Shown here: positions 7,686 through 58,180 of the stretch, piece by piece
Position numbering within the stretch: the first letter of the stretch is position 1
Layout of the letters: the number at the start of each line of letters is the position of its first letter
Translations under genes and position numbers: made by a program
Notes under the pieces: generated by a model
The model's database searches: none
The model's input: only the letters and a program-made list of their open reading frames with translations
What the model was told of the DNA's origin: nothing
Origin: Prevotella sp.
GTDB taxonomy: Bacteria > Bacteroidota > Bacteroidia > Bacteroidales > Bacteroidaceae
NCBI GenBank assembly: GCA_045616725.1
Contig: JAZLHI010000129.1
Coordinates: forward strand, 3,414 to 67,413
DNA: 64,000 nucleotides
Reading direction: 5' to 3'

Positions 7686-7838
7686 TATTGTTGTAAAAAA
7701 GGTAACCCTGCTGCCGAAAAAGTGTTCTGCGCATTTAACACTTTTGCCCTAAATCTGTTATTTACGCAGAACACTTTCATCTTGAATCATGTGACGAGAG
7801 ATGGTTTTCCTTCACGTAATCTAATGAATCTTGAGATA

Positions 7839-7990
7839 GCCTACACCCCTACATCTTTTTTCGTAAAGTGCTGGAATGAGAAAGGTTATGAGGTGTAGGT
7901 GGGGTGTAGGCAAAAATGGAGCCTACACCGAAACCCCTAAAAACCCTAATGGATAAAGGGAATCTCAGTGTTTTGGTGTAGGGTGTAGGC
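7839..7990. repeat. Word-hairpin element, CCTACAC/GGTGTAG type
   Basis: gcctacacccctaca (7839-7853) pairs with ggtgtaggtggggtgtaggc (7892-7911). gcctacacc (7921-7929) pairs with ggtgtagggtgtaggc (7975-7990). Confidence 0.7.
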
Positions 7991-8209
7991 AAATCGATAA
8001 AATTCATTATGGTCCTTAAACCCATTTGGGTTTAATATTCATTAGGAATACGGTGCAAGATCCTTACGAATACAAAAATATCCGTGGGACTTACGACTCG
8101 TATTCGTGGCAGTTATGAGTCATATTTCTAAGGAATATGACTCATTTTTCATAATATGATTAGTGTAGTGGTGTTGGCTGTTTTAAATTTCTGAGAAATT
8201 GCACTACAA

Positions 8210-8409
8210 CTCCTCACTCCTCACCAATAGCACGTTAAACGCTGACTATCAATAAGTTGGAAGGGTGATGAGTTGCTTGTGACTCCTCACCACTCCTCAC
8301 CGACTCGTCACCAGAAATGTATAGGGTGACGGCACTCGTCACCTACTCGTCACCGCGTAACAATCTGAATGTTAGTTTGTTACAAGGGAATGTGACGAGT
8401 GATGAGTGA
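8210..8409. repeat. Word-hairpin element, CTCNTCACC/GGTGANGAG type
   Basis: At least 9 direct or inverted copies of the word. Its architecture can be aligned to the elements at 18468-18682 and 47493-47707. Confidence 0.7.
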
Positions 8410-8442
8410 TTTTAATTTGTGCCAGAATGTATGATTCTATGT

Positions 8443-8484: not shown

Positions 8485-8535
8485 TTTATTATTGTAAGCG
8501 GCTCAGAAATCTTCGCCCTACAATTGCATAAACAT

Positions 8536-9142: not shown

Positions 9143-9296
9143 AAGACCCCCTCTAACTCCCCCACAGGGGGGAGGACTTTTTAATTAGACTTGCTAATTA
9201 TGGGGAAAAAGTCTTACATTTTCTTAAAATAGACCGAACCTCAAAAGGTAATATCTTTAAGCCTCCCCCCCGTGGGGGAGGTTTGGAGGGGGTCTT
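9143..9296. mobile_element. MITE-like insertion with GC-rich hairpin terminal inverted repeats
   Basis: Left end is aagaccccctctaactcccccacaggggggagg. The reverse complement of the right end is aagaccccctccaaacctcccccacgggggggaggc. An AT-rich ~85-bp core lies between. It fills the rnfE-rnfA intergenic gap. Confidence 0.6.
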
Positions 9297-16511: not shown

Positions 16512-18257
<1,746 letters not shown>

Positions 18258-18467
18258 TCATTTAGAAAGAAAAATAATCACATTTTATATATAATAATGT
18301 ACGTAAGAGCGGCACTTTCATAATGAAACAGCAAGGAAAACGACTCAAAACCTCAAGGAAACGCATCAAAAGTCTAGGCATTTTGATGCAAAAGTCCCAC
18401 GATTTTGAGGCAATACAGAATGAATTGCTCTCTCTTGCGCTTTTATCCAATTCAGAATGAATTCCTA

Positions 18468-18682
18468 TTTTACCCGTCATCCGTCACTTTTCTATGTAAC
18501 TGTCTGTATATTAGGGTGTTATCCGGTGACGGGTGAATTCCGATCCGTCACTTCCCGTCACCATCCATTACATTTAGTGATGGATGGTGATAGGAGGGTG
18601 ATGGGTTGTTATTACCCATCACGTGCTTAATCTTTTGAAAACCAATAGGTTAGAGCGTAAAAGTGACGGGTGACGGGTAAAA
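18468..18682. repeat. Word-hairpin element, GTGAYGG type (core); homology extends left to about 18262
   Basis: 24-bp terminal inverted repeat ttttacccgtcatccgtcactttt / aaaagtgacgggtgacgggtaaaa (1 mismatch). Three internal hairpins are built from the same words. Confidence 0.8.
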
Positions 18683-18685
18683 CGC

Positions 18686-33710: not shown

Positions 33711-33819
33711 AACCCTACATACCCTACATGGAATCGCTGAGATCACCTGTGTTTATCGGTGTTCTCGGGCTATGTAAGGTTTATGTAGGGTGCATGAAGG
33801 GTAATTTTGCCTACATGCC
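33711..33819. repeat. Word-hairpin element, CCTACAT/ATGTAGG type
   Basis: aaccctacataccctacatgg, atgtaaggtttatgtagggtgcatg and gcctacatgcc. Its reverse complement aligns to the right half of the 7839-7990 element. Confidence 0.65.
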
Positions 33820-33925
33820 AAAGAACTTCATTTCTTTATGTACTTGACATATCTCAATAGGGGGGGTGATTTATCTCTCTATAAAAAAGATAAGGAATAA
33901 TTTGGTCGTTATAATAAATTTTTAG

Positions 33926-35198: not shown

Positions 35199-35254
35199 AT
35201 AATACTTAACACTAAGCACTAAACACTAAATAGGGTTAGAGCTAATTCATGGGT

Positions 35255-35350
35255 AAGGCGAAGATTTGACTTTCCCTATCGGCCGCCGACCACGGTTCTG
35301 AGCCGTCGTAACAATGTTGATTATCGAAACGACTCGGAAATCTTCGCCCT
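35255..35350. repeat. REP-like inverted-repeat element (GGCGAAGATTT...AAATCTTCGCC)
   Basis: The ends pair. The interior shares tttgactttcc..cggccgccgac with 33155-33262, and the end shares ctcggaaatcttcgccctaca with 8498-8524 and 21454-21480. Confidence 0.65.
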
Positions 35351-35382
35351 ACATGTTTGTTGTGAGAATATAATTCTTGGTT

Positions 35383-35775: not shown

Positions 35776-35856
35776 GATTGTTTATTGTTTTTGTTGTTAT
35801 ATTACTTGGTGTCTGTGGGACTATGGTTTCTCCCTCACAGGGAGGGTGGGGTGGGT

Positions 35857-43972: not shown

Positions 43973-44004
43973 CACTCGCAAACAAACATTTGCACCCAGA
44001 AATA

Positions 44005-44195
44005 TAGACAGTCGGTTCGGCAGAGATGCCGATTAAAAGGGAATCAGGTGTAAGTCCTGAACAGGCCCGCTACTGTAACCCAAATTTTGTATCCCGGAGC
44101 AATCCATTGCCATTAGGGTGGCGAGAAGGACCGGGATTGGGAAGTCAGGAGACCTGCCACTGTTGTAACATCAAAAGGCTTCGAGGATCAGGCTG
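44005..44195 (+). promoter_or_regulatory. Cobalamin (B12) riboswitch
   Basis: Core ggttcggcagagatgccgattaaaagggaatcaggtgtaagtcctgaacaggcccgctactgtaacc, plus B12 box gccactg at 44156-44162. Confidence 0.9.
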
Positions 44196-44555: not shown

Positions 44556-44628
44556 GCGGAAATAGCTCAGTTGGTAGAGCACAACCTTGCCAAGGTTGGG
44601 GTCGCGGGTCCGAGTCCCGTTTTCCGCT
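44556..44628 (+). tRNA. tRNA-Gly (GCC)
   Basis: Cloverleaf folded by hand: acceptor gcggaaa/tttccgc, anticodon loop cttGCCaag, T-loop tccgagt. Confidence 0.9.
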
Positions 44629-44666
44629 CTTTAGATTTAAAAAAGAACTTGCGTTCTTGGAAATTT

Positions 44667-44748
44667 GCCCAGGTGGCGGAATTGGTAGACGCGCACGTTT
44701 CAGGTGCGTGTATCGCAAGATGTGCAGGTTCGAGTCCTGTTCTGGGCA
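44667..44748 (+). tRNA. tRNA-Leu (CAG)
   Basis: Acceptor gcccagg/tctgggc, anticodon stem cacgt/gcgtg with loop ttCAGgt, long variable arm, T-loop ttcgagt. Confidence 0.85.
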
Positions 44749-44765
44749 CAAAGACTTATTGTAAT

Positions 44766-44849
44766 GGAGAGGTGGCGGAATTGGTAGACGCGCTACTTTG
44801 AGGGGGTAGTGTCAATTGTGACGTGGGAGTTCGAGTCTCCTCCTCTTCA
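44766..44849 (+). tRNA. tRNA-Leu (GAG)
   Basis: Acceptor ggagagg/cctcttc, anticodon loop ttGAGgg, long variable arm, T-loop ttcgagt. Confidence 0.85.
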
Positions 44850-44874
44850 CTACTTTAATGAGTTTCTGAATTTT

Positions 44875-44947
44875 GCGGAAATAGCTCAGTTGGTAGAGCA
44901 CAACCTTGCCAAGGTTGGGGTCGCGGGTCCGAGTCCCGTTTTCCGCT
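44875..44947 (+). tRNA. tRNA-Gly (GCC), identical second copy
   Basis: Sequence identical to 44556-44628. Confidence 0.9.
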
Positions 44948-46132: not shown

Positions 46133-47476
46133 ATGGACGACTATATATCCTGTATATCAGATTATTTAACCCAGCTCTTTGCCGGTGTCTCTTTCCAGAC
46201 ACCGACAACGGCTGTCATCATAACCATCTGTTTCATCGTATTGCTTCTCTTTCTCTCGGGCTTTGCTAGTGGAAGTGAGATAGCCTTCTTCAGCTTGTCG
46301 CCGAAAGACTTGGACAATCTTGAGGACGAAAAGACGGCAACCGATAAGCTTATCAACGAACTGAGAGAGGATAGCGAGCGAACACTTGCCACAATTCTCA
46401 TCACAAACAACTTTGTGAATGTCACCATCATCATGCTTTGCAATTATGTTTTTGCGAAACTAATAGACTTTGGTGGCAACCAAGTGCTTGAATTCATTAT
46501 CCTTACGGTCCTTCTTACCTTCATTCTCCTGCTTTTCGGTGAGATCTTGCCAAAGATTTTTGCCCGTCAATCTACGCTTGGCTTCTGCCGAATGGCTGCA
46601 AAAGGTATTTCCTTCTTCCGCACGCTATTCTGGCCTATGGAGAATCTGCTGATGAAGACAAGCGTCGTAGCGGAGAAGATTGTTACTGAAGACAATCACG
46701 TGATGAGCGTTGACGAACTGGAACAGGCTCTTGAGCTGACCGACAAGGAGGACATTGCCGAGGAGAAGAAAATCCTTGAGGGCATCATTCGCTTTGTAGA
46801 TGAGACTGCAAAGGAGATTATGACGCCACGAAAGGACATTGTGGACATCAATATCAAGGCACGTTTCAGCGATGTCATCTCTTGCATTGTTGAGAACAAC
46901 TACAGCCGAATACCAGTCTATCAGGACAATGGCGACAATATTCGTGGAATCCTTTACATAAAGGATCTCTTACCATATTTGGGCAAGCCTGACAGTTTCC
47001 GCTGGCAATCGCTCATTCGTCCGCCTTATTTCGTACCAGAAACAAAAAAGATAGACGCCCTCTTGCAGGAGTTTCAGGAAAACAAGGTCCACATTGCAAT
47101 CGTCGTTGATGAGTTCGGTGGCACGTCAGGACTTGTTACTATGGAGGACATCCTTGAGGAAATCGTTGGCGAAATCAACGACGAATATGACGAGGAAACA
47201 AAGCAATACACTCGCCTTAACAAGAACACATATATCTTTGAGGGCAACATCCCACTCACGGACATGCAGAAAGTGTTGGATGTTGACGATGATGAATTTG
47301 ACGAAATAAAAGGTGAAGCCGACACTCTTGCCGGACTCCTCCTTGAAATAAAGGGCGACTTCCCAAAGCCACACGAGGAGTTCACTTTCAAGAACTATCG
47401 CTTTGAAGTGATGAAAGTGGAAGAACGCCGCGTAGCTTCCGTGAAGGTTATCATCACGAATGCGAAGGAGTCGTAA
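46133..47476 (+). CDS. gldE: GldE/CNNM-family protein (DUF21 membrane domain, CBS pair, CorC_HlyC)
   Basis: Four N-terminal TM helices, a CBS pair (IMTPRKDIV..., YSRIPVY) and a C-terminal transporter-associated domain. The ssb-gldE adjacency is typical of Bacteroidota. Confidence 0.75.
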   Translation: MDDYISCISDYLTQLFAGVSFQTPTTAVIITICFIVLLLFLSGFASGSEIAFFSLSPKDLDNLEDEKTATDKLINELREDSERTLATILITNNFVNVTIIMLCNYVFAKLIDFGGNQVLEFIILTVLLTFILLLFGEILPKIFARQSTLGFCRMAAKGISFFRTLFWPMENLLMKTSVVAEKIVTEDNHVMSVDELEQALELTDKEDIAEEKKILEGIIRFVDETAKEIMTPRKDIVDINIKARFSDVISCIVENNYSRIPVYQDNGDNIRGILYIKDLLPYLGKPDSFRWQSLIRPPYFVPETKKIDALLQEFQENKVHIAIVVDEFGGTSGLVTMEDILEEIVGEINDEYDEETKQYTRLNKNTYIFEGNIPLTDMQKVLDVDDDEFDEIKGEADTLAGLLLEIKGDFPKPHEEFTFKNYRFEVMKVEERRVASVKVIITNAKES

Positions 47477-47492
47477 AAAATATAAAATTGCC

Positions 47493-47707
47493 TTTAACCC
47501 GTCACCCATCACTTTTGCTGCACAACACACTGGTATTCAGATGATTAAGTGAGTGATGGGTGGTAATAGCCCATCACTCCGCCATCACAATCAATCACCA
47601 GCAGTGGTAGGTGGTGACGGGTAGTGATGGGATGGAATGCACCCGTCACGAGGTAATGTCTTAATAAACAGGTAGTTACAAAGGAAAGTGACGGGTGATG
47701 GGTAAAA
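47493..47707 (-). ncRNA. Candidate structured ncRNA / word-hairpin element, GTGAYGG type (core; unit extends to about 47880)
   Basis: Closing stem 47493-47516 / 47685-47707. Hairpins at 47551-47579 (10 bp perfect) and 47614-47649 (8 bp). Minus-strand TAACTTTG box at 47882-47889, with a T-run after the closing stem. Confidence 0.45.
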
Positions 47708-47881
47708 TCAAAGTTCTTTCTGAATTGGAGAGAATAACGCAAGAGAGATTGTTTTCTTTAGGTTTACAAAATATTCCTAAGGATTAAGATGTATATTCCT
47801 TGGACTTTTTATTAGTTTCCTTAGACTTTTTGGTTCGTAAAAGGTTTGTTCATGTTGAGTGGAATTTCAATTTTATGGTGG

Positions 47882-47889
47882 CAAAGTTA
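47882..47889 (-). promoter_or_regulatory. -7 box TAACTTTG pointing into the gene-free element
   Basis: Reverse complement of caaagtta, immediately after the tyrS terminator. Confidence 0.5.
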
Positions 47890-47892
47890 AGG

Positions 47893-47928
47893 GAAAAATA
47901 GTGAGGGCGTGTCAAAAGACACGCCCTC
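47893..47928 (-). terminator. Intrinsic terminator of tyrS
   Basis: Minus strand: gagggcgtgtc-tttt-gacacgccctc followed by actattttt. Confidence 0.8.
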
Positions 47929-47987
47929 TTTAGTATATAATTATTGTGTAAGTATCTAAGAATGTGGGGAAACTTGCCTTACGGAAC

Positions 47988-49283
47988 TTACTTCACAGTT
48001 ACGAGGAAGTAGTTCTTCTTGCCACGCTGCACGAGGATGTACTTGCCTTCGATGAGATCTTCCTCTGTGATGGCGCGGTCGAACTGCTGGAGCTTTTCCT
48101 TGTTAACGGAAACGCCGCCGCCCTGAACCATCTTGCGCATCTCGCCCTTTGAAGGGAAGATTGCTGCGTCCTGAGTGAAGAGCTCAACTGCTGGCTGGCC
48201 GAGACGCTCCTTTGAAATCTCGAACTGTGGTACGCCGTCGAAGATGTCGAGGAATGTCTGCTCGTCAAGCTTAGCGAGAGAATCCTTTGTAGCCTTGCCA
48301 AAGAGGATGCCTGAAGCCTCAATAGCTGCATCGAGAGCCTCCTTTGAGTGAACCATTGTTGTCACTTCCTCAGCGAGACGCTTCTGGAGAATACGGCGAC
48401 CTGGATCCTGCTTGTGCTCCTCAACGAGTGCGTCGATAACGTCCTTCTCAAGAGAAGTGAAGATCTTTATGTACTTTTCTGCGTCGTCATCGCTCACGTT
48501 GAGCCAGAACTGATAGAACTTGTATGGAGTAGTGCGCTTTGGGTCGAGCCAGATGTTGCCGCGCTCAGTCTTACCGAACTTCTTGCCGTCAGCCTTTGTG
48601 ATGAGTGGACAAGTGAGTGCGTAAGCCTCGTTGTCGTTGCCGAGAGTACGGCGGATGAGTTCTGTACCTGTTGTCATGTTACCCCACTGGTCATTACCAC
48701 CGAGCTGCATCTTACAGTTCTTTGCCTGGTAGAGGTGGAGGAAGTCGTAGCCCTGAAGGAGCTGGTAAGTGAACTCTGTGAATGAAAGACCGTCGCGAGC
48801 GGTACCGTTGAGACGCTGCTGAACGGAATCCTTTGCCATCATGTAGTTCACTGTAATGTGCTTACCGACAGTACGAGCGAAGTCGAGGAATGTGAAGTCC
48901 TTCATCCAGTCGTAGTTGTTTACCATCTCAGCAGCGTTAGGACCTTCTGCTTCAAAGTCAAGGAACTTTGCAACCTGAGCCTTGATGCACTCCTGGTTAT
49001 GGTAGAGAGTCTCTGTGTCAAGGAGGTTACGCTCCTGAGACTTGCCTGAAGGGTCGCCGATCATACCAGTGGCACCACCGACGAGGATGATAGGCTTGTG
49101 GCCGCAGCGCTGTAGATGACGGAGCATCATGATACCACAAAGGTGACCGATGTGCAGAGAGTCTGCTGTAGGGTCTGTGCCGAGGTAAGCAGTGACCATC
49201 TCCTTCTGAAGGAGTTCTTCCGCACCTGGCATTATCTGCGCGAGCATTCCGCGCCATTTGAGTTCTTCTACGAAGTTTTTCAT
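47988..49283 (-). CDS. tyrS: Tyrosine--tRNA ligase
   Basis: HIGH-type motif SLHIGHL, KMSKS-type KFGKTE and a C-terminal S4 domain. Start at MKNFVEEL (49283) avoids overlap with yidD; the alternative start is 49304. Confidence 0.95.
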
Positions 49284-49287
49284 ATTA

Positions 49288-49509
49288 TTATGGTACTGGG
49301 TCATATCCTGAGCCTCCCCAGGGATGACATCTTAATATTCTTTTTATTGCGAGCCAAAGGCCTTTGAACGGGCCATGCTTGATGATTGCCTCTTTCGCAT
49401 ACTGCGAGCAAGTTGGCGTGAAGCGGCATGCTGGCGGCGTGAAAGGCGATATGCAAGTCTGGTAGAAGGCTATCGGAGCGAGGAGTATGGCGGTAAGAAG
49501 CTTTTTCAT
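49288..49509 (-). CDS. yidD: Membrane protein insertion efficiency factor YidD
   Basis: [37 protein letters not shown]. Confidence 0.9.
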
Positions 49510-58019: not shown

Positions 58020-58087
58020 TGCGTATAGTTTAGCGTTATGTATGTTGGACGTGGGATTTGAGTGATCTTTCTCTATAAACTCAAGTC

Positions 58088-58151
58088 ATTTTCGTATACG
58101 AATGCAAACCATTTTCGTATACGAAAACAAACTACTTTCGTATACGAAAAT
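58088..58151. repeat. Three TTTCGTATACGAAA palindromes with centres exactly 23 bp apart
   Basis: Palindromes at 58091-58102, 58112-58127 and 58136-58149, between the convergent MATE and GT2 gene ends. Confidence 0.9.
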
Positions 58152-58180
58152 GGATGGGATTCGTAAGGAATAAATTCCTG

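Follow-up and report, generated by a model that had tools for sequence, protein, structure and literature searches.

What is the structured, gene-free unit that lies between two convergent genes of a Prevotella genome? We analysed a window of 64,000 nucleotides from Prevotella sp. (GenBank assembly GCA_045616725.1, contig JAZLHI010000129.1, positions 3,414 to 67,413 of the forward strand; unprefixed coordinates below are those of this window), a host genome represented by metagenome contigs. The intergenic region in question (47477-47987) separates a gldE-type gene (46133-47476, plus strand; CNNM/CBS/CorC domains, with homologs named GldE of Prevotella sp.) from the tyrosyl-tRNA synthetase gene tyrS (47988-49304, minus strand; assigned by its Pfam families). 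An exact look-up of the TyrS protein gave no record. The initial annotation had proposed a novel structured non-coding RNA (ncRNA) gene on the minus strand of 47476-47895, and had named a DNA element of the MITE (miniature inverted-repeat transposable element) or REP (repetitive extragenic palindromic) type as its fallback. It is the fallback that is supported: the unit is a member of a large family of dispersed repeats, and the candidate is a copy of that repeat, not a self-contained ncRNA gene. The segment 47487-47748 is probably a single copy of a compound palindromic Prevotella repeat that is dispersed, non-coding and chromosome-borne, of the kind formed by REPs, bacterial interspersed mosaic elements (BIMEs) and REP doublets forming hairpins (REPINs) on the one side and structured MITE-like repeats on the other.

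The copy itself, element A, extends from 47487 to 47712 in the plus orientation of the family. It is a full-length match to a covariance model of the family, R1 (72.7 bits, E approximately 3e-14, 210 of 210 model positions; 62.2 bits in the minus orientation). The stems described initially are present. The closing stem pairs 47493-47515 with 47685-47707 (23 nt, 87% complementary), and each arm holds a terminal double word, on the left ACCCGTCACCCATCAC, which is two tandem heptamers (47497-47512), and on the right GTGACGGGTGATGGGT (47688-47703). Between them lie a left spacer of approximately 38 nt (47513-47550) with degraded versions of the family landmarks TAAC..CTG..TCA..TTA; the word hairpin h1 (47551-47579; GAGTGATGGG / CCCATCACTC, 9-nt loop), which aligns to the family h1 and has 10 perfect base pairs (47551-47560/47570-47579); a variable centre (47580-47613) with further word copies, e.g., CCATCAC at 47582-47588; the region of word hairpin h2 (47614-47649; GTGACGGGTAGTGATGGG ... 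CACCCGTCAC), with the arms GTGACGGG/CCCGTCAC at 47613-47622 and 47640-47649; and a right spacer (47650-47687) with the family landmark TTACA at 47676-47680. The weaker central hairpin joins 47582-47600 to 47612-47630 (79%). The repeated use of GTGAYGG is also confirmed: the word occurs 34 times in the window, compared to 13.1 +/- 3.7 times in shuffled sequences (0 of 100 shuffles reach 34), and 19 of the 34 occurrences fall within A and its paralog, element B.

The paralogy noted at the outset is real, but it covers approximately 260 bp plus one 36-nt island rather than 400 bp: 47490-47748 aligns with 18685-18429 at 75% identity. Element B (18429-18683, minus strand; R1 68.0 bits) consists of a model part (18467-18683) and a right extension shared with A (18429-18466). 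In A this extension is 45 nt long (47704-47748, plus strand; TTCTGAATTGGA at 47718-47729 and CGCAAGAGAGA at 47738-47748); it is private to A and B and was not found in the human-gut subfamily described below. The following 47749-47900 is a copy-specific tail with the direct repeats TTCCTTGGACTTTTT (47796-47810) and TTCCTTAGACTTTTT (47817-47831); it has a patchy likeness to the tail of B and is probably outside the family unit. As a candidate for a separate repeat, the A/B tails had no further copies in 1.2 Mb of fetched sequence. A third family member, element C (8197-8417, plus strand; R1 73.6 bits, E approximately 2e-14), carries the word CTCNTCAC/GTGANGAG, as in the human-gut subfamily. R1, which was built from 12 human-gut copies only and has as its structure a terminal stem and two word hairpins, matches all three elements at full length (model positions 1-210, E approximately 1e-13 or better) and gives no match beyond A, B and C in the 64-kb window.

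How widespread is the family? We searched with a right-end pattern, TTACA-N5-AD-GTGACGRRTGAYGRGT, that was written to fit A, B and C and reaches only words of the GTGACG type. In metagenome contigs it occurs at 120 or more loci, nearly all from the human gut, whose flanking proteins are named "uncultured Prevotella sp." in NCBI. The copies listed form 23 clusters (less than 88% identity) at no fewer than 21 distinct genomic sites; orthologous copies are not independent, and some counts below rest on manual de-duplication. R1 also matches, at full length, a copy in the related metagenome-assembled genome (MAG) L013 (87.8 bits). Searches of plasmids, phages and viral contigs gave no family match. 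A scan of GTDB-representative contigs with the A/B terminal-repeat pattern gave three stray single-site matches; the host genome is not one of those representatives. Tandem double words near a gene end were seen at two sites (L002:6115-6167 and L003:983-1010), as GTTACGTGTTACG followed by GTGACGGGTGACGGG in a Neomarinimicrobiota MAG and as ACCCATCACCCATCAC in a Bacteroidia contig; the single double words of these unrelated phyla may be chance matches or very distant relatives.

One layout is common to all copies. The elements are non-coding, multicopy and 180-250 bp long, with terminal inverted repeats of 23-48 bp. Within one copy all stems are built on the same word of 7-8 nt, present approximately 10 times per element: GTGAYGGG in A and B, GTGAYGAG in the main human-gut subfamily, and other words in look-alikes in the window. 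Outermost in the gut subfamily, and in this subfamily only, is an A/T-rich outer repeat (AAAAAGTTTTT ...). Then come the terminal double word AAACTCRTCACTCGTCACA; a left spacer of approximately 38 nt, itself a small palindrome or hairpin, that bears TAAC, CTGA, TCAG and TTA as its landmarks; h1 (GTGAYGAGTTG-N6-CAACTCRTCAC); a variable centre of 20-85 nt; h2; a second spacer, whose end is TTACA-N5-A; the double word in inverted form, GTGACGAGTGAYGAGT; and the outer repeat again. A and B follow this plan without the outer repeat, and their alignment to the family consensus keeps the order of the parts (double word, spacer, hairpin, centre, hairpin, TTACA spacer, double word). Their word is a GGG variant where the gut copies and C have GAG, a one-position change that is found in every word copy.

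Stems of the word hairpins are 11 bp long and their loops mostly 6 nt; CGTC is part of the paired stem (GTGACGAG/CTCGTCAC), and no tag is left unpaired. The two hairpins form an inverted pair that is identical, loops included, in L034 and L038. When arms within a copy were compared with arms of different copies, there was no excess similarity for the outer repeat or the spacers and a weak one for the hairpin loops (36 of 2000 permutations). Departures from the full plan include one-hairpin short forms, via recombination between h1 and h2, solo right halves, and half-elements flanking 400-700 bp of non-coding cargo with other repeats. A second gut Prevotella repeat, with units TTTCCTGATTNNGGTTGACTTC, stands beside or inside word palindromes (L021:300-480, L052:690-1000, L131); its TTTCCTGATTNNGGTTGACTTC form is seen also in the right flanks of L024, L028, L031 and L037, and the cargo of L052 and L131 holds, in addition, GTAG-headed palindromes such as GTAGGGACGTACCCCAGGTACGTCC.

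Could the unit still be a stand-alone structured ncRNA gene that is read from the minus strand of 47476-47895, uses a promoter at 47882-47889 and has a terminator-like T-run past its closing stem? The region is gene-free, the minus strand of A folds at -85.0 kcal/mol (z -5.0 against shuffles), and a -7 box of the Bacteroidota type, TAACTTTG, does stand at 47882-47889 on that strand with no gene downstream of it. Approximately 23 nt upstream of the box is a TTTG, inside the loop of the tyrS terminator, a bidirectional terminator-like hairpin (47903-47928) that marks the boundary and is outside the element. However, the box is an orphan. The motif is common (66 in the window where 46 are expected) and is not kept in B, where the only -7 box (18197-18204, minus strand) lies just upstream of the start codon of a SASA esterase and points away from the element. 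The T-rich run past the closing stem exists on the minus strand of A but is specific to it; past the closing stem of B, the proposed strand enters the 3' end of a coding gene. Neither promoter nor T-run being conserved in B, and no promoter motif being conserved in the gut copies, the proposal of a discrete transcription unit with both signals does not stand, and we now find such a gene quite improbable.

The plus strand of A folds better than the minus strand (-105.1 kcal/mol, z -7.5), and no family-wide strand preference emerges: minus-strand G-U mismatches outnumber those of the plus strand by approximately 2:1, which is not significant (cluster-weighted; wobble compared to A-C), while 9 of 23 clusters have the plus strand as the more stable fold (Wilcoxon p = 0.07, with a lean toward minus). 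Because A and B follow same-sense genes without a terminator, read-through would transcribe the plus strand of the family, the opposite of the one proposed. The proposed stems carry little covariation since they are almost invariant (34 of 49 pairs never vary and 4 change on both sides). Searches of Rfam at gathering and permissive thresholds, covering the window, both copies and 13 related loci, yielded no family and only chance-level microRNA-like matches. A published transcriptome map of Segatella copri has 63 small RNAs (sRNAs) and mentions no repeat-derived family; the family word is absent from the supplementary text of the S. copri sRNA survey, which is weak negative evidence. The statement that the unit holds no conserved open reading frame (ORF) was correct: a 65-codon ORF on the minus strand is frame-shifted in B by a 2-nt indel. 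A small conserved ORF is therefore ruled out, its frame not being kept in B.

We are interested in whether the family is decaying or maintained. Among the 239 columns of the model, 93, which make up the terminal repeat, the words, the stems of the hairpins and the landmarks of the spacers, reach a pairwise identity of 0.8 or more (17 distinct sites); elsewhere the mean is 0.38, near random. In 11 groups of orthologous copies drawn from different samples, the core has a nucleotide diversity of 0.019, against 0.065 for the variable interior and 0.074 for the 150-nt flanks. Each of the 11 groups has a lower value for the core than for the interior, and the core is 3.4-fold less diverse than interior or flanks, which shows that the core of words and terminal repeats is under constraint. 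The copies are old, with words kept intact at each locus, which selection or homogenisation among copies could bring about; the neutral decay of dead transposon copies would not produce such a mosaic. One patch differs between samples of the same species. Comparing A in the window to L004:4388-4440 and L005, we find 15 differences (13 of them transitions) in 47520-47572, from the left spacer into hairpin h1, and almost none elsewhere in 420 nt; the GldE protein is identical between the samples. For B, 4 of 5 differences fall in the corresponding part. The simplest explanation for the patch in A would be a short conversion tract from another copy.

The copies prefer gene 3' flanks. Among the loci listed, the neighbouring genes are convergent in 16 cases, tandem and same-sense in 15, divergent in 3 and tandem but opposite in 2; after manual removal of orthologous duplicates these become approximately 11, 6, 2 and 2. 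The left neighbour is same-sense in 32 of 37 raw cases, a count that is for the most part automatic in convergent contexts, and the de-duplicated tandem contexts (approximately 6 to 2) show no significant orientation bias. In the window, A begins 13 nt past the stop codon (47476) of the same-sense gldE gene and B begins 2 nt past that of a same-sense gene of 227 amino acids, with no terminator-like site between stop codon and element in either case.

Does the element then act as a cis-acting RNA of mRNA 3' ends, maintained by the host as a large bidirectional terminator, a barrier to 3'-exonucleases or a ribosome staller, with its repeat nature secondary? E. coli REPs have been described as stalling ribosomes when they lie within approximately 15 nt of a stop codon. 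The closeness of A and B to their stop codons would suit such a role, as would the preference for 3' flanks, the constraint on the core at each locus and the very stable folding of both strands. In addition, the terminal repeat of the gut subfamily carries A5-6G...CT5-6, which would place U-rich sequence after a long stem in either direction of transcription. However, most gut copies are 100-640 nt from the upstream stop codon, A and B have no U-tract directly past the stem, a related species manages without the element at the B site, and a terminator needs no word shared across its stems. We hold this account to be possible but unlikely.

Copies of the family persist for long at orthologous sites. 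Both A and B turn up again in further samples of their species, and orthologous copies are stable across samples. In the related species (flanking protein 84% identical; synteny of GH97, a small gene and the SASA esterase), the B site has an intergenic stretch of only 57 nt, reading TAA-gcg-TTTTACCCTTCACCCATCAC, then a spacer-like stub and then the esterase promoter. The left double word and the stub imply that the B site has been occupied since before the species split, the lineages differing by an indel of approximately 440 bp. None of the relatives examined keeps the synteny downstream of gldE: in one, a MatE gene follows gldE after 14 bp, another has a GH10 gene, and a third (GldE 94% identical; L007:2469-2620, also L008-L012) has the stop codon, a TTCACGGT/ACCGTGAA element and then a VapE-like (primase-type) gene. 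The TTCACGGT/ACCGTGAA elements may be repeats of an integrated element. We also observed, to the right of the element, an extra GC-rich and hairpin-rich insertion of approximately 350 bp in L025, L030, L099 and L106 that is not in L015 and L023 (orthologous site).

Since inverted repeats flank a segment of approximately 170 bp, and Bacteroidota are rich in invertons, it may be asked whether the repeats are recombinase sites around a flipping segment. In approximately 1160 orthologous flank matches, which come from assemblies and not from reads, the flanks have one and the same orientation relative to the element interior; 12 reciprocal pairs in opposite orientation (83-85% identity over approximately 70 nt) look like another repeat. 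The copies also stand mostly at gene 3' ends and not upstream of operons, and no recombinase gene is nearby. An inverton is thus extremely unlikely.

A classical MITE has more to recommend it. On this account the element would be a deletion derivative of an insertion sequence with a DDE transposase, mobilised in trans by way of its terminal inverted repeats, and the words would be multiple transposase-binding sites, as at the ends of Tn7, Mu and IS21. The family is small in unit size, has terminal inverted repeats of 23-48 bp, lacks coding capacity and occurs in many copies; half-elements bracket variable cargo; and all words of an element change together between subfamilies, as if read by a cognate protein. 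Nevertheless, target-site duplications are lacking, and searches of 1.2 Mb of loci and of plasmids, phages and viral contigs found no autonomous partner with such ends. An active MITE burst yields near-identical copies, whereas copies at different sites are here highly diverged outside the core and orthologous copies are stable across strains. We therefore consider a classical MITE improbable. The profile fits REP, BIME and REPIN elements more than a classical MITE: the elements are chromosomal, multicopy palindromic doublets in 3' flanks, with no duplications, no linked transposase and vertical persistence, and sister families with different words occur in one genome.

Several observations weigh against a repeat of the REP/BIME/REPIN kind. 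No mobilising enzyme was found, the window genes that adjoin the elements being ordinary ones, for Rnf subunits, a DNA methylase, the esterase and GldE; nor is any ORF in the 1.2 Mb of loci flanked by a pair of the terminal repeats. No clean empty site was recovered among the metagenome loci, where the size variants represent a second insertion or the one-hairpin form. Target-site duplications are visible neither at 8 well-delimited copies nor at A or B, though old copies could have lost them. Copies at different sites are old (variable columns approximately 38% identical), so active transposition would be conjectural. A host function, as RNA or DNA, could explain the constraint on the core equally well, and ectopic gene conversion that homogenises the shared words may be an alternative to selection.

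For a repeat of the REP/BIME/REPIN kind, the words might be recognition or pairing modules. They could be sites for a putative trans-acting protein, either an element-specific enzyme, such as one like the REP-associated tyrosine transposase (RAYT), or a host DNA-binding protein; alternatively, DNA cruciforms or hairpins could have them as their stems. A word-reading protein would be the easier explanation, since all of the approximately 10 words share the same variant while pairing alone would constrain only the partners within a stem. The element would propagate, or would once have propagated, as non-autonomous DNA. The gldE mRNA may carry element A as its passively transcribed 3' end, and the fold of A, of approximately -100 kcal/mol, could, by analogy to E. 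coli REPs, terminate transcription or protect the gldE transcript as a 3' barrier.

It is tempting to go further, albeit speculatively, and to regard the word palindromes as long-lived REPIN-like replicators of Bacteroidota whose words co-evolve with a putative trans-acting protein, or else as a conformational switch at gene 3' ends. As replicators, GTGAYGGG, GTGAYGAG and possibly GGTGTAGG, ATGTAGGG and TTCACGGT would form one superfamily with words of 7-9 nt. A switch, acting as RNA or as single-stranded DNA, would draw on the ability of each stem of a copy to pair with every other. We offer this broader proposal, in either form, as a tentative one.

The window contains further repeats built on words. 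Element D (7838-7995; word GGTGTAGG/CCTACACC), directly upstream of C, has inverted double words around spacers of approximately 40 nt, in a style like that of A, B and C, yet is not detected by R1. Element E (33716-33830; word ATGTAGGG/CCCTACAT) has an inverted double word around a spacer of approximately 40 nt that contains CTGAGATCA; the long intergenic region in which it sits is upstream of a gene for an outer-membrane beta-barrel. Arrays of the palindromic word TTTTCGTATACGAAAA / TTTTGTATACAAA occur at 58087-58165 of the window and at L137:3690-3807 (also in L138-L140), the array in L137 starting just past a stop codon; they are a further word-based repeat of these genomes. Between two Rnf-subunit genes there is a C/G-rich inverted repeat (AAGACCCCCTCTAACTCCCCCACAGGGGGG and its partner; 9143-9172 / 9267-9296), and a similar motif, CCCTCACAGGGAGGGTGGGG, stands upstream of the RF3 gene at 35820-35850. 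The 15-mer AAATCTTCGCCCTAC at 8508-8522, 35253-35267 and 35338-35352, once with an inverted partner 70 nt away, is maybe a small repeat. A cobalamin riboswitch (43995-44175; 103.6 bits) and a cluster of four tRNA genes (44556-44947) are also present, and the same tRNA cluster is upstream of gldE in the related MAG L013.

Prevotella, with the Segatella copri complex among its members, is a dominant genus of the human gut for which genetic tools are few and the non-coding genome is poorly mapped. The word-palindrome family described here is abundant in it and apparently uncatalogued. Its word sequence is not printed in the searchable literature, and the family is not described in the literature on REPs, RAYTs and MITEs; coverage of both is incomplete, so that "undescribed" is provisional. 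A repeat family of this kind has a bearing on assembly, on strain typing and on annotation, in the form of spurious sRNA or small-ORF calls. Its conserved core is a pointer either to a putative trans-acting partner or to some influence on how neighbouring genes are expressed; lying in so dominant a gut genus, this core merits targeted follow-up even though the claim of an ncRNA gene is not upheld. If a cognate enzyme exists, REPIN-like systems, which are known mainly from Proteobacteria, would extend to Bacteroidota. If the proposal of a replicator or a switch is true, the conserved core would have a function instead of being a relic, in a genus that is among the most abundant of the human gut.

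Which known systems does the family resemble? Ends of the IS200/IS605 type and their non-autonomous derivatives (hairpin-recognising HUH transposases) share with it the subterminal hairpins, the lack of target-site duplication and the TTAC/TAAC near the hairpins. However, those elements are without terminal inverted repeats and strictly strand-asymmetric, whereas the Prevotella element is a near-symmetric palindrome with which no Y1 transposase was seen. The structured MITE-like repeats (Neisseria Correia, enterobacterial ERIC and pneumococcal BOX/RUP elements, and the MITEs of P. gingivalis; PMC4596501) are similar in being 100-250 bp long, non-coding, intergenic, modular and bounded by terminal inverted repeats, and in being often co-transcribed with neighbouring genes. 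In contrast to them, the Prevotella repeat has no target-site duplication or matching insertion sequence found, its copies are old and diverged outside the core, and a single word is reused in every stem. At the genus level there is a precedent for an abundant intergenic non-coding repeat in the P. intermedia/nigrescens repeat (PINSR), which has approximately 180 intergenic copies per genome, is non-coding, has no established function, has approximately three quarters of its sites conserved between strains and, according to its authors, has no terminal inverted repeats (2015, PMC4755523). Identity with PINSR is ruled out: neither of its polymerase chain reaction primers matches the window with 3 or fewer mismatches, and the two are different sequence families.

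Formally, a REP is a palindrome of 20-40 bp that bears, at one of its ends, a GTAG or CGTC tag that stays unpaired, and REPs of the CGTC type have a stem of 8-9 bp, a loop of 4-5 nt, a CCA-like tail and no known dedicated transposase (Di Nocera et al. 2013, PMC3733652). The Prevotella repeat is not a CGTC- or GTAG-tagged REP in this sense: its CGTC/GTAG-like tetranucleotides are paired inside the stems, which are 11 bp long with loops mostly of 6 nt. The unit is also larger and composite (approximately 210 bp), with terminal double words, two 11-bp word hairpins and structured spacers. Neither the window nor the 1.2 Mb of loci showed a RAYT (Y1 transposase) gene with the repeats on its flanks; the inverted palindromic doublet, the many chromosomal copies and the vertical inheritance are those of REPIN-RAYT systems. 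With REPs, BIMEs and REPINs (Bertels & Rainey 2011, PMC3116915; Di Nocera et al. 2013, PMC3733652) the family has in common short palindromic units in inverted pairs that are able to fold into larger hairpins; many chromosomal copies downstream of coding regions, between convergent or same-direction genes; several sequence families of one architecture per genome; the lack of target-site duplication; and a long vertical persistence.

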